Below are positions 33,470-43,570 of a DNA stretch of 64,000 nucleotides, piece after piece. The position numbers and the translations under genes are program-made. The DNA comes from Escherichia coli O157:H7. GTDB taxonomy: Bacteria; Pseudomonadota; Gammaproteobacteria; Enterobacterales; Enterobacteriaceae. Every line of letters starts with the position of its first letter. The first letter of the stretch is position 1. The stretch lies in assembly GCF_013167455.1 (NCBI RefSeq), contig NZ_CP038328.1; one strand, given 5' to 3'. The notes beneath the pieces were generated by a model. The model was not told the origin of the DNA. It worked only from the letters and a program-made list of their open reading frames with translations, and ran no database searches.

Positions 33470-33883
33470 TCACGCAATTTTTCTGGCCATCAGATAGATA
33501 GCCGGTTCCAGCACAATTTCATCCAACAGATGAATGAATTGAATGCTACGCGCTTGCCACACAGACGTCGCGTCATCTGCCAGTGGCGCGAATGCCCGGG
33601 TCAACAGGGCGGTGTGGCTGGCGTCAATAACAATCTCACCAAAAGTCATCACCCCCAGCATCTTACGTCGGGCTTGCTCCTCTTCGACCAGTGCAAGCCA
33701 ATCTTCGTATTCCGTCAGTGGGCAGCGGAAGGTGACATTCAGACAATCAATCACGCCAACGTGATGACCGATAGCCAGCGAGTAATACATTACCTGGGAG
33801 CTGTGTTCCGGCATCTCGTCGCTACTGGCGACAAACTTTTTTCGCAGCGTCCAGAAAACAATTTCCCCGCACTCTTCAGTCAT
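33470..33883 (-). CDS. hyfJ: hydrogenase-4 component J (HycH-like maturation factor)
   Basis: Track ORF starts at 33946; ATG 33883 gives the recognised [12 protein letters not shown]-terminus; overlaps hyfI 3' end. Confidence 0.85.
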
Positions 33884-34634
33884 GTAACCCCCGGAGTACG
33901 CGAAAGAGTTGCTGAACGATACTATTGAGACGTGGATCGTCGGCATCGCGCAACCAGGTGTTAACCCGATTTCCTGTAGGATCGTTGCTTAAATGGCGCA
34001 GGAGCCGATCGCAAATTTCTTGCCCCTGACGATAGCCCGCCAGCCGCCGCGCTTCTCGCTCAATGGCGATACGCTGTGATGGCGGGATCTGCGGCCACAA
34101 CGGTTGCATAGTCACCCCGGTGGGATCGCGATAATCCACCGCGTGAATCTTCTGTTGCAGCAAACCGAGCGCCACGGCGAAACCGTGAATGGTGGCGGCC
34201 GGTGTTGGCGGGCAGCCGGGGATCCAAACATCAATGGGGACAATGGTGTCGCTGCCGCCCCAGACGCTGTAGAGATCGTGGAAAATACCGCCGCCGACAC
34301 CGCACGCGCCGTAGGAAACACAGATTTTATGATCGGGGGCAGACTCATACGCCCGAAGTGCAGGCATACGCATCGCCCGGGTGACTGCGCCAGTAAATAA
34401 CAAAATATCGGCGTGACGCGGTGATGAAACAACCTTAATGCCAAAACGTTCTGCGTCGAATACGGGTGTGATGGCGGCAAAAATTTCGATTTCACAGGCG
34501 TTGCAGCCGCCGCAATCGACGCGATAAACGTAGGCTGAGCGACGGATATCCTGTAGCAAATGCCGCTTCATCTTTTGCGTTTGCTCGTCCAGCGTGATGG
34601 GCTGGCTGACATGTTGTGTAAGCACTGGACTCAT
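33876..34634 (-). CDS. hyfI: hydrogenase-4 small subunit (NuoB-like)
   Basis: Track ORF 252 aa; NuoB-type Cys ligands. Confidence 0.9.
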
Positions 34635-35176
34635 AGCTGCTCCTTAGCCACCAGCGGTACATCTGTATCGTCGTTGATCAGCGTCGCGCGTTGTTTGCAC
34701 TCCGGGCAGACGCTCGCTTGCGCCCGCAACATTTCGCGGTTTTGTGGCGCATTTTGTTGCTGTGCCAACAATTCAGCAGCCAGTGCGACGGTTTTTTGCG
34801 GGGCAAACGGGCGTTCGCAACGGCTGCAACGTTGTAGATGGAACGTCGCGCGGGTATAGAGATCGGCTTTATTGGTGACGGTCAGTTCAAAGTTATTGGT
34901 AAGCTGGATGGCTCTGGTCGGGCACACTTCTTCACAACGTCCGCAGTAAATACAACGCCCCAGATAGAGCTGCCAGGTGCGCGAATTTTGCTGGTCGTCG
35001 GTCTGGATAGTCAGCGCATTTGTCGGACAAGCACAGGCGCAGGCACCACAGGCAATACATTGGCTGGGCATCAGGTCCGGTTTCCCGCGAAAGCCTGGGC
35101 TGACCTCCAGTGGCGCGAAGGGATATTTCACCGTCGCGGTTCCGGCGCGCATAATAGTTTTCAGTAACTTCAGCAT
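34631..35176 (-). CDS. hyfH: hydrogenase-4 2[4Fe-4S] ferredoxin subunit
   Basis: Track ORF 181 aa; CxxCxxCxxxCP motifs. Confidence 0.9.
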
Positions 35177-35185
35177 CTTCTGTCC

Positions 35186-40577: not shown

Positions 40578-40593
40578 ATTCCGTCAGTGCTCC

Positions 40594-41541
40594 TTACAGA
40601 CCGGTTAACCAGAAGACCCATGCAAGCGCAGCAAGGCTGAAGCCAAGCCAGGTCACATGGTGAATGAGTAAAAAACGCCCGCGTGCCAGCGTGTTTTCTG
40701 CGATTGAGGCCAGTACAAAAATCAGCAAAACCTTGAGCAGCGTAACGACAAGTGAAGTCAGCAGGCAGGCGAGAGAAAGTTCTTGCGCGCACCCAAAGGG
40801 CAGAAACAGGGCCACAAACAGTGCTGCCATCACGACCTGTTTCAGCCCCAGCCCCCATTTCGCCAGCGCCAGCCCGGCACCGGAATATTCTGTCAGCGGG
40901 CCTTCCTGTAATTCCTGTTCTGCTTCAGCAACATCAAAGGGAATTTTTCCCATCTCAATGAAGCAGGCAAAACCACAGGCCAGTAACGCCAGTACGGTGG
41001 TTAGCGGCGAGTTCCAGCCCGTTGCCAGCGTATTGCTGATCATCTCGATATGCGTGGAACCTGCTATCAGCGCCAATACCAGCAGTGAGAGAATGAGCAT
41101 TGGTTCGACCAGAATGCCGAGCGTCAACTCGCGACTGGCACCGACTCCCGCAAACGGGCTTCCGGTATCCAGCCCGGAAAGAGCAAAGAAAAAACGAAAC
41201 AGGGCAAGAAGATAGATAAGGGTGATCAGATCGCCGCCGCCCGCAAAAGGGGAAACGGTAATAAATAGTGGTAGGGCCATCGCCAGCACCAGCATGCTGC
41301 TGATTAATACCCACGGCATCAGGCGGAACATCAGACCTGAAGATATAGGCGCAACTTCCTGGCGTTTAAACAGTTTGTGGATATCGCGATAATCCTGCCA
41401 GATCCCCGGCCCGCGGCGGGAGTGCATACGCGCGCGTATCTGCCGGGAAATACCCGTAAAAAGCGGGGTTAGCATCAGCAGAATCACGGCCTGTGCTAAC
41501 GCAAAAATGACCAGATATCCGTCGCAAAGAGTTTGTCTCAT
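40594..41541 (-). CDS. hyfC: hydrogenase-4 membrane subunit (NuoH-like)
   Basis: Track ORF starts at 41562; ATG 41541 with AAGGAAA SD gives MRQTLCDGYLVIF. Confidence 0.88.
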   Translation of the reverse strand: MRQTLCDGYLVIFALAQAVILLMLTPLFTGISRQIRARMHSRRGPGIWQDYRDIHKLFKRQEVAPISSGLMFRLMPWVLISSMLVLAMALPLFITVSPFAGGGDLITLIYLLALFRFFFALSGLDTGSPFAGVGASRELTLGILVEPMLILSLLVLALIAGSTHIEMISNTLATGWNSPLTTVLALLACGFACFIEMGKIPFDVAEAEQELQEGPLTEYSGAGLALAKWGLGLKQVVMAALFVALFLPFGCAQELSLACLLTSLVVTLLKVLLIFVLASIAENTLARGRFLLIHHVTWLGFSLAALAWVFWLTGL

Positions 41542-41551
41542 GGTGATTTCC

Positions 41552-43570
41552 TTAGACGGCAATAGCGATTAGCAGCACAACCAGTGCGGCGACCACATAC
41601 AGGCAATAGAGACGAAAGTCGCCGCTTTGCAGATGCTGTATTTCTTTGGCCAGCCGTTGGGTGGCGCTCACGATGGGGCGGATCACCCGCTCATCCCAGA
41701 AGGGTTCTGTGCTCTGAGCCCTGGCGGTGACGTGCGCAAGACCTTTATTTAGCCTCAGCGTAGGGTCGAGCTGTTGTCGTAGACGAAATAGCGCAGAGAA
41801 GACCACACGCAGCGGCTGCATCACGCCATTGCCTGACGGGGCCATCGCATTTTCCCAGCCGTAGCCGCATGCCCAGGCATCTCCTGTGCGACGAAACGCT
41901 GCGCGGCGCGAACGACACCACAGCCAGTAAAGGCCAGGCAGCAAAGGCATCGCCAGTAGTAACAGCAACAGTAATGAGGGGGTGACCTGTGTATGAAACG
42001 TGCCGGGTACAAGTGCTATTCCGCTGGCGACAGTGACGGGAGGGGTATTGGTAAACGCATGGGCAATATGCATTATCTTCGGTGCCAGCCAACTGGCACT
42101 AAGCGCAATTAATACGCAGAGTGCCGCGAGCAGTAGCATGGCGACGATCATCGTATTTGGCACTTCCTGTGCCTCTTCAGCGTGTGTACTGCGCGGCGCA
42201 CCACAGAAAGTAATACCGTACATTTTGACGAAGCACATTACTGCCAGCCCACCAGTGACTGCCAGCATCACCATAGCAATAGGACCCGCAAGTTGTAGCG
42301 CTACGGCTTCCACACGACTTAGTGAGAACAGCGACTGCCAGGTGTACCATTCGCTGATAAAACCATTCAGCGGAGGAAGGGCTGATATCGCGAGGCAACC
42401 AATCAGGCATGCTGCGGCTGTCCACGGCATCCGTTTCGCCAGTGCCCCCATTTTTTCCATGTCGTGGGTATGCAAACGCGAAATAATCGCGCCCGCGCCG
42501 AGAAATAGCAGCCCTTTGAACAGCGCATGGTTGAGCAGATGAAACAGTGCGCCGAGCAGTCCAACCACGGTGAGCAGCGGGTCGTGTAGTGACAGACCGA
42601 CCATCGCCACACCGACTGCCAGCAAAATAATGCCGACGTTTTCGACGGTACTCCAGGCCAGCAGCCGTTTGATATCCTGTTCCGCCAGCGCATACAGCAC
42701 GCCCAGGAGCGCGGAGATTGCGCCGATCGCCATCACCAGAATGCCCCACCACAGCGGCAAACCCGTTTGCGCCAGCAGATCCATCGCCACTTTCAGGATG
42801 CCGAAAATACCGATTTTGACCATTACGCCAGACATCAACGCCGAAGCGTGCGATGGTGCGGCAGGGTGAGCGCGCGGCAACCAGCTGTGCAACGGCATCA
42901 TCCCGGCTTTCGCGCCAAAACCGAAAAAGGCCAGCAGGAACACCGCCGACGCCAGCCCCGGAGAAAGTGAAAGCGTGCGGAAACTGGCAAAATCTAGGCT
43001 GCCGCTTTCGCGCCCCATCAGCAAGAAGGCGATCATAATCAGCACCGATCCGGCGTGGGCGATAAAAAAGTAGAGCATGCCAGCGTTGATCGACGTTTTA
43101 TCCTGCCTGGCAATGACCAGAAACCAGGAAGACAGCGACATCATTTCAAACAGCACGATGAACCAAAAAGCGTTGTCCATCACCAGCAGGGCAACCATCG
43201 ATGCGATGAAAATATTCATAAAGAAGCCCATCGCCGCCGCGCCTTTGCCCTCGTATTCGCGCATATAAGTCAATGAATAGAGCGAACAAACCACCACCAG
43301 CAAGGAGATAACCAGCACCATAAATGCCGAGAGGCTATCCATTCGCAGGGTTAAATCGGCAAAGTCAAAAGGGGTGGCAAAACGGGCAACTAAAGTTACG
43401 CCTTCATGTAATTGCGTAATTCCGCTGATGATGCCAATCACGCCGCCCACCAGCGATGTGATGCCGGAAAGCTTAATAGCCAGTCTGTCCAGACCGAGTA
43501 AAAACAGCGAAGCCAGACTGGCAAACAGATAGAGGATCAGCGACCAGGTTAATAATTGCAGGGCATCCAT
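41552..43570 (-). CDS. hyfB: hydrogenase-4 antiporter-like membrane subunit (NuoL-like)
   Basis: Track ORF 672 aa. Confidence 0.9.
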   Translation of the reverse strand: MDALQLLTWSLILYLFASLASLFLLGLDRLAIKLSGITSLVGGVIGIISGITQLHEGVTLVARFATPFDFADLTLRMDSLSAFMVLVISLLVVVCSLYSLTYMREYEGKGAAAMGFFMNIFIASMVALLVMDNAFWFIVLFEMMSLSSWFLVIARQDKTSINAGMLYFFIAHAGSVLIMIAFLLMGRESGSLDFASFRTLSLSPGLASAVFLLAFFGFGAKAGMMPLHSWLPRAHPAAPSHASALMSGVMVKIGIFGILKVAMDLLAQTGLPLWWGILVMAIGAISALLGVLYALAEQDIKRLLAWSTVENVGIILLAVGVAMVGLSLHDPLLTVVGLLGALFHLLNHALFKGLLFLGAGAIISRLHTHDMEKMGALAKRMPWTAAACLIGCLAISALPPLNGFISEWYTWQSLFSLSRVEAVALQLAGPIAMVMLAVTGGLAVMCFVKMYGITFCGAPRSTHAEEAQEVPNTMIVAMLLLAALCVLIALSASWLAPKIMHIAHAFTNTPPVTVASGIALVPGTFHTQVTPSLLLLLLLAMPLLPGLYWLWCRSRRAAFRRTGDAWACGYGWENAMAPSGNGVMQPLRVVFSALFRLRQQLDPTLRLNKGLAHVTARAQSTEPFWDERVIRPIVSATQRLAKEIQHLQSGDFRLYCLYVVAALVVLLIAIAV

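Follow-up and report, generated by a model that had tools for sequence, protein, structure and literature searches.

Gene Content and Junctions of the hyf Operon

The hyf operon of Escherichia coli O157:H7, which encodes hydrogenase-4 (Hyd-4), also called formate hydrogenlyase-2 (FHL-2), was analyzed in a stretch of 64,000 nucleotides (nt) of contig NZ_CP038328.1, hereafter the window. Positions 33000-45000 of the window show 100% identity to annotated E. coli O157:H7-type chromosomes and carry on the minus strand the genes hyfABCDEFGHIJR-focB (table 1), which are placed identically by PGAP, on one matching chromosome, and by the curated annotation of K-12 MG1655. Junction geometry is also the same in these two annotations, and all 12 genes from hyfA to focB translate without internal stops. 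Membership in the operon is supported by the gene order hyfA-J, hyfR, focB, which is that of annotated records and recurs in seven orthologous loci. HyfG is a fusion of a NuoC-like part and a NuoD-like/[NiFe] large subunit part, containing the Pfam domains Complex1_30kDa, NiFeSe_Hases, and Complex1_49kDa, and it matches PDB chain 7z0s_E (formate hydrogenlyase subunit 5) with an E-value of 8e-293. The region very probably has the normal architecture of a hyf operon, with junctions typical of operons that encode multi-subunit complexes. The genes hyfA-J presumably share one transcript, given that the spacers leave no room for a terminator together with a promoter and that the literature names hyf an operon.

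From hyfA to hyfJ, the successive distances between neighboring genes are -1, +10, +16, +11, +4, -11, +9, -4, and -8 nt, negative values being overlaps (junctions are designated below by the letters of the genes they join, for example, A/B for hyfA/hyfB). An earlier note on this DNA had described a chain of short overlaps and tight junctions through the operon, and all the junctions and coordinates that it listed were recovered when they were derived again from the sequence; to these must be added four equally tight junctions that it did not mention, C/D (+16), D/E (+11), E/F (+4), and G/H (+9). The AAGGAAA Shine-Dalgarno (SD) motif of hyfC, which the note had placed inside the 3' end of hyfB, in fact straddles the end of that gene, its first two bases being the final two of the hyfB stop codon (TAAGGAAA) and the remainder lying in the spacer. 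Such a fusion of the stop codon to the SD (TAAGGAG or a close variant) is found at B/C, C/D, D/E, and G/H, while at E/F the SD just precedes the stop. For hyfD, the TAAGGAG fused to the hyfC stop is the sole SD and lies unusually far (11-12 nt) from the ATG. All 12 annotated starts are preceded by a motif predicted to pair with the anti-SD at -5.1 to -9.3 kcal/mol with a spacing of 2-11 nt; as a background, -4.4 kcal/mol is attained by just 16% of random 20-mers of the window.

Table 1. Genes, Gene Junctions, and Promoter Element of the hyf Region (window coordinates; aa, amino acids)
Feature	Position	Strand	Details
Sigma54-type -24/-12 element upstream of hyfA	44229-44244	-	reads TGACATCCTTTATGCA
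hyfA	43570-44187	-	205 aa, ATG 44187
hyfA/hyfB	43568-43572	-	TAATG, 1-nt overlap at 43570; SD AGGAG within hyfA
hyfB	41552-43570	-	672 aa
hyfB/hyfC	41539-41554	-	TAA stop fused to SD (TAAGGAAA); 10-nt spacer 41542-41551; ATG 41541
hyfC	40594-41541	-	315 aa, ATG 41541
hyfC/hyfD	40575-40596	-	TAAGGAG, 16-nt spacer, ATG 40577
hyfD	39138-40577	-	479 aa, ATG 40577
hyfD/hyfE	39124-39140	-	TAAGGAG, 11-nt spacer, ATG 39126
hyfE	38476-39126	-	216 aa, ATG 39126
hyfE/hyfF	38469-38484	-	AAGGGA-TAA, 4-nt spacer, ATG 38471
hyfF	36891-38471	-	526 aa, ATG 38471; C-terminal tail differs between genera in both length and sequence
hyfF/hyfG	36891-36912	-	GGAG 36909-36912, 7-nt spacer, GTG 36901; 11-nt out-of-frame overlap 36891-36901; hyfF stop 36891-36893
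hyfG	35186-36901	-	571 aa, GTG start, full-length allele
hyfG/hyfH	35174-35188	-	TAAGGAC, 9-nt spacer, ATG 35176
hyfH	34631-35176	-	181 aa, ATG 35176
hyfH/hyfI	34631-34645	-	AAGGAG 34640-34645, 5-nt spacer, ATGA overlap 34631-34634
hyfI	33876-34634	-	252 aa
hyfI/hyfJ	33876-33892	-	GGGGG 33888-33892, 4-nt spacer, ATG 33883; 8-nt overlap 33876-33883
hyfJ	33470-33883	-	137 aa, ATG 33883
hyfR	31428-33440	-	+29 nt after hyfJ
focB	30558-31406	-	+21 nt after hyfR

Spacings of at most 16 nt occur at nine of nine junctions in hyfA-J and at 8 of the 31 other same-strand neighbor pairs of the window (Fisher p = 9e-5). However, the proper yardstick for the tightness of hyf is the operons of related complexes, and here hyf is not significantly tighter than hyc and nuo taken together, in which 16 of 19 junctions are at or below 17 nt (p = 0.30). 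The paralogous hyc operon (hydrogenase 3/formate hydrogenlyase-1, FHL-1) displays the same tight pattern, with hycB-I gaps of -4, +2, +17, +9, -1, -4, and -8, and the hycE/hycF gap equals that of hyfG/hyfH (+9). The exact geometry nonetheless differs between homologous junctions of the two operons, for example, -4 versus -1 and +2 versus +10. Moreover, hyc lacks hyfD, hyfE, and hyfF, and hence has no counterpart of the F/G overlap, hycE lying 17 nt after hycD. In the evolutionarily related nuo operon (complex I), the nuoA-N gaps are 15, 105, 2, -4, 52, -4, 14, 11, -4, -4, 163, and 6, with four ATGA overlaps and 9 of 12 junctions at or below 15 nt; its three long spacers (52, 105, and 163 nt) have no equivalent among the hyf structural genes. 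Close or overlapping same-strand pairs of prokaryotes in general are qualitatively alike. In E. coli, 707 of 2,987 same-strand pairs lie at -8 to +6 and 203 at +9 to +12, the commonest distances being -4, -1, and -8 (PMC10666635); F/G (-11) and C/D (+16) narrowly miss the most populated bins. The tight hyf junctions and the concept of coupling are thus already known and belong to an ordinary operon layout, in which one junction, H/I, has already been tested experimentally.

Conservation of Junction Geometry in Orthologous Operons

By scanning for HyfF with one genome per species, we obtained eight loci, seven of which are complete operons and were used as orthologues (50-92% protein identity): Klebsiella indica, four Citrobacter, Phytobacter ursingii, and Brenneria sp., the last being the most distant relative obtained. 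The scan gave no Escherichia locus, and counts over eight loci below refer to the window plus the seven orthologues. The locus left out, from Superficieibacter sp. 1612_C1 (L010, ~10001-12500), is a degraded remnant that lacks hyfA-E and hyfG-J and in which a hyfF fragment (residues ~163-519) directly adjoins the C-terminal fourth of hyfR, with focB intact after it.

Alignment of the orthologous junctions, which the earlier note had named as a check, bears out a nearly constant spacing of the structural genes. The gap is -1 at A/B and +10 at B/C in seven of the eight loci, +16 at C/D in all eight despite a diverged spacer sequence, +11 or +12 at D/E in all eight, +4 at E/F in seven and +5 in the remaining one, +9 to +11 at G/H in all eight, and -4 (ATGA) at H/I in all eight. 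F/G overlaps in every locus, by 4, 8, 11, or 23 nt, and the I/J distance is -8 in four loci, -20 in two, -4 in one, and +1 in one. Outside the SDs, the spacer sequences diverge between genera, whereas their lengths hold. The SDs are conserved, save for a weak one (-3.5 kcal/mol) upstream of hyfB in two loci. The spacers that flank the regulatory genes behave differently, J/R and R/focB measuring 109-158 and 115-135 nt in the relatives versus 29 and 21 nt in E. coli, a difference of ~80-115 nt. Because spacer lengths are kept while sequences diverge, and because the regulatory-gene spacers vary, selection appears to act specifically on the geometry of the structural-gene junctions.

The two short regulatory spacers of E. 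coli occupy positions 33441-33469 (hyfJ/hyfR, 29 nt) and 31407-31427 (hyfR/focB, 21 nt) of the window. Six of the related operons (L003-L007 and L009) contain a conserved sigma54-like motif, TGGTACG-N4-(G/A)TGCA, ~47-57 nt upstream of the focB start. On this comparison, E. coli appears to have lost the internal intergenic regions, which fused hyfR and focB to the structural operon, and the candidate focB promoter was probably lost with them.

The Start of hyfG and Other Alternative Starts

The start of hyfG had been called ambiguous in the earlier note, between an upstream ATG at 36946 and a GTG at 36901; comparison of the orthologues settles the choice in favor of the annotated GTG 36901. This codon is preceded at 7 nt by GGAG (-6.6 kcal/mol), while ATG 36946 has no SD (-1.5 kcal/mol). 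A GTG with GGAG at the same spacing is present in all seven orthologues; in Brenneria, the ATG that serves as start stands 3 nt downstream of this GTG, and GTG plus GGAG at 7 nt were scored in seven of the eight loci. The SD is kept although the overlapping C-terminal tail of HyfF is poorly conserved in length and sequence. By contrast, ATG 36946 is not conserved, and in four orthologues (L003, L006, L007, and L008) a stop codon interrupts the hyfG frame 48-57 nt before the start aligned with that of E. coli, so that no long form of HyfG is possible in them. Initiated at this GTG, HyfG (571 aa) can be aligned over its full length, N-terminus included, with both HycE (569 aa) and PDB chain 7z0s_E, and GTG 36901 is the start annotated by both K-12 and PGAP. 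Variation within the species is uninformative on this point because the F/G junction region is nearly invariant, being at least 99% identical in 4,280 of 4,294 E. coli genomes; the difference seen in K-12 hyfG lies elsewhere.

More generally, the short overlaps would be an annotation artefact if the longer starts in the list of open reading frames (ORFs) were the real ones (hyfG ATG 36946, hyfJ ATG 33946, hyfC TTG 41562, and hyfA ATG 44226), in which case the first three would give overlaps of 56, 71, and 11 nt. The four codons are indeed present in frame in the window, and the hyfG extension is invariant within E. coli, an invariance that the overlapping hyfF coding sequence explains. Yet none of the four has an SD (+0.7 to -2.6 kcal/mol, versus -6.0 to -9.3 at the corresponding annotated starts) and none is positionally conserved, the hyfG extension being moreover interrupted by the stops mentioned above, while the lengths of HycE, HycD, and HycH agree with the short forms. 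We consider that this explanation can hardly be right, and the annotated starts are retained.

Each alternative start was rejected individually. ATG 44226 of hyfA (+0.7 kcal/mol, versus -7.7 at ATG 44187) is absent in the orthologues and lies directly 3' of the TGCA of the -12 promoter element, a position expected to be upstream of the transcript start. TTG 41562 of hyfC, which comes from the mechanical ORF list and which the earlier note had used as the end coordinate of its chain of junctions, is without an SD (-2.6 kcal/mol) and missing from four of the seven orthologues. ATG 33946 of hyfJ combines the lack of an SD (-2.2 kcal/mol) with the lack of positional conservation, and hyfG ATG 36946 was discarded for the same two reasons together with the stops that close its frame in orthologues. 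The practical value of the comparison lies in this support for the annotated starts, especially the GTG of hyfG, and in the demonstration that structural-gene spacing is conserved across genera.

Evidence For and Against Translational Coupling

From the junctions alone, the earlier note had proposed translational coupling and a fixed stoichiometry. For hyfH-hyfI, coupling stands on published reporter assays (Huber et al., Nat Commun 2019, PMC6728339; Front Microbiol 2023, PMC10666635), in which 99 nt from the end of hyfH and 30 nt from the beginning of hyfI were cloned between two reporters, and which concern the same junction as that of the window (ATGA overlap, AAGGAG SD). A premature stop before the overlap made the translation of hyfI extremely low or undetectable, and lengthening the distance to 38 nt decreased reinitiation by 80-90%; the pair is thus strongly coupled by a termination-reinitiation that decays with a longer artificial spacer (PMC6728339, PMC10666635). 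These constructs differ from the natural situation in that 99 + 30 nt were carried on a plasmid between reporters, and they cover one of the nine hyf junctions. For B/C (+10), C/D (+16), D/E (+11), and G/H (+9), coupling cannot simply be assumed and is uncertain, because at spacings of +11 to +20 nt it is highly gene-specific (PMC6728339, PMC10666635) and because the +9 to +12 peak of E. coli has been judged to reflect probably independent, SD-driven initiation (PMC10666635).

Other features of the operon are compatible with a wider occurrence of coupling. Six of the nine junctions (A/B, B/C, E/F, G/H, H/I, and I/J) lie inside the distance range that predicts reinitiation according to the criterion of Huber et al. 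(-8 to +10 nt), and F/G (-11), D/E (+11), and C/D (+16) are just outside it. At all hyf junctions in the window, an SD of -5.1 kcal/mol or stronger is located inside the upstream gene or abuts it. Tight pairs are also 4.5-fold enriched for subunits of complexes in E. coli (PMC6728339, PMC10666635). By analogy with hyfH/hyfI, we infer that other hyf junctions may be coupled as well.

In the mechanism that we favor, the ten structural cistrons would be carried by one mRNA, each with its own SD 4-12 nt before the start, and with four overlapping junctions (A/B, F/G, H/I, and I/J) and five with spacers of 4-16 nt. A terminating ribosome would stop on or beside the next ribosome-binding site, where it could reinitiate, and the open, SD-bearing initiation regions would also permit fresh initiation; the likely net effect would be a roughly proportional synthesis of the subunits of one complex. 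The most economical mechanism is SD-assisted reinitiation where junctions overlap or are very short, possibly supplemented by fresh initiation, and an obligatory unfolding of locked ribosome-binding sites is less likely. In the solved FHL-1 complex, the subunits are present in single copy. This composition and the enrichment of tight pairs among complex subunits suggest, by analogy, that the stoichiometry of the Hyf subunits may be fixed.

Several observations weigh against coupling throughout the operon. The energies required to open the region from -18 to +6 around the starts lie at percentiles 0.11-0.55 of the in-mRNA background, meaning that any deviation from random positions is toward a more open state, and no initiation region was seen to be consistently sequestered across the eight loci; because they are open, each cistron could be initiated independently, without coupling. 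In the reporter assays, coupling at +14 nt was gene-specific and had almost gone by ~20 nt (Huber et al., PMC6728339, PMC10666635), which makes it uncertain at C/D and D/E. The overlap lengths drift between genera at F/G (4 to 23 nt) and I/J (+1 to -20), and the exact overlap is therefore not constrained. Finally, the hyf operon has been reported to be poorly expressed in E. coli, and the -24 element of its promoter is mutated in this strain.

Some of these points would fit a scenario in which tight junctions merely reflect genome compaction and easy mutational paths, ATGA and TAATG arising readily, with each cistron translated independently from its own SD, and with neither functional coupling nor a control of stoichiometry. 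The presence of a competent SD and an open initiation region at every cistron, the variable lengths of the F/G and I/J overlaps, and the probable independence of the +9 to +12 class (PMC10666635) are all expected under such a scenario, and one of five overlapping E. coli pairs tested, bioBF, turned out to be uncoupled (Huber et al., PMC6728339). On the other hand, it does not account for the loss of downstream translation at hyfH-hyfI once upstream ribosomes are halted, and the preservation of spacer length despite sequence divergence, in the structural genes only, argues for selection on geometry. We consider independent translation unlikely overall, though it deserves to be taken seriously.

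We regard as rather improbable a coupling that would operate mainly through RNA unfolding, with downstream ribosome-binding sites locked in structure and opened only by the ribosome translating upstream. Local hairpins are predicted only at B/C, H/I, and I/J. H/I is predicted to form a well-defined hairpin whose loop contains the SD and whose stem contains the AUG (21% of the ensemble), and structure at this initiation region was also predicted by Huber et al. 2019 (PMC6728339); at B/C, the fold beats most shuffles (z = -2.0; 5/200), and the hairpin pairs the stop/SD with codons 5-9 of hyfC. However, seven of the nine 129-nt junction fragments fold no more stably than shuffled sequences, the exceptions being B/C and I/J (z = -1.2 at the latter), and the opening energies of the -18 to +6 regions are below the in-mRNA median at nearly all junctions of the window, none being consistently high across the eight loci. 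A stricter form of reinitiation can also be envisaged, a hard-wired relay in which ribosomes would load mainly at hyfA and pass from cistron to cistron, as the invariant spacers, the TAAGGAG-type fused stops at four junctions, and the GTG start of hyfG with its SD in the hypervariable HyfF tail might suggest. If true, it would make production of the catalytic module dependent on a completed membrane arm and impose a 1:1 cotranslational assembly of FHL-2; we find it a little more doubtful still than the unfolding scheme. Reinitiation combined with possible fresh initiation thus remains our preferred reading.

Allelic Variation in hyfG and in the hyf Promoter

Relative to K-12 hyfG (555 aa; K-12 locus L002, 11488-13155), the hyfG gene of the window (571 aa) contains 48 additional nt (16 codons; 35699-35746, minus strand), and a 10-nt direct repeat, GCCCGTGATT, borders this site on both sides. 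All seven orthologues as well as HycE conserve the 16-codon segment, which belongs to the Complex1_49kDa domain; the Pfam score of this domain falls from 170.7 to 129.6 bits without it. Among 4,294 complete E. coli genomes with this part of hyfG, 2,179 have the full-length allele and ~2,115 the deleted one, the K-12-type allele being thus present in about half of the hyf-carrying genomes. The deletion may be one of the reasons why K-12 lacks Hyd-4 activity. In the work of Finney et al. 2020, promoter replacement failed to activate Hyd-4 of K-12; as explanations, that paper and Finney et al. 2019 offer low expression, the lack of an accessory gene, and assay conditions that are in dispute. A search of the two papers for deletion- and silence-related words found no mention of the hyfG lesion, and a literature search for the 48-nt deletion, which was poorly targeted, returned nothing relevant.

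The promoter region also differs between strains. The sigma54-type element upstream of hyfA reads TGACAT-N5-ATGCA in the window and TGGCA(T/C)-N5-(G/A)TGC(A/T) at the equivalent position in K-12 and in all seven orthologous loci, so that position 44242 is an A where the second G of the -24 GG stands in all the others (GG to GA). We take this element to be the hyf sigma54 promoter from its consensus and conservation and from what is reported by Skibinski et al. 2002; a mapping of the hyf transcript start and an original description of the operon are also reported. The GA version, as an exact 88-nt promoter, is found in 138 complete genomes of the classic O157:H7 type, including EDL933, Sakai, and 86-24, and the same 88 nt with the G restored in 185 genomes, for example, that of O157:H7 strain PV15-279. 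Because sigma54 binding normally depends critically on the -24 GG, the classic O157:H7 lineage may be impaired in its native transcription of hyf. Farther upstream, the bcp-hyfA intergenic region contains two inverted repeats on the minus strand, at 44340-44353 and 44371-44384, CGACACGGGTGTCG (perfect) and GTGATCAAGATCAC (one central mismatch). They lie ~95-155 nt upstream of the sigma54-type element, the position expected of a site for an enhancer-binding protein (FhlA or HyfR).

In a wider survey, ~1,130 of 5,426 complete E. coli genomes gave no match to the hyfG or hyfA regions, and 4,290 cover at least 80% of window positions 33000-45000; about one in five E. coli genomes thus has the hyf operon missing or mostly deleted. 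Taken together, the hyfG deletion, the promoter change, and the absences of the operon are consistent with a lineage-specific decay of hyf in E. coli. To hydrogenase researchers, the K-12 hyfG allele and the -24 element of O157:H7 may matter more than the junctions themselves. Hyd-4 activity has long escaped detection in E. coli, and either lesion could be a contributing cause.

Other Features of the Window

Rfam and tRNA scans of the window returned nothing in or near the hyf operon, and no tRNAs. The sole Rfam match in the window is the known small RNA sroE (RF00371, 116.6 bits), located at 4656-4747 on the plus strand between ispG and hisS.

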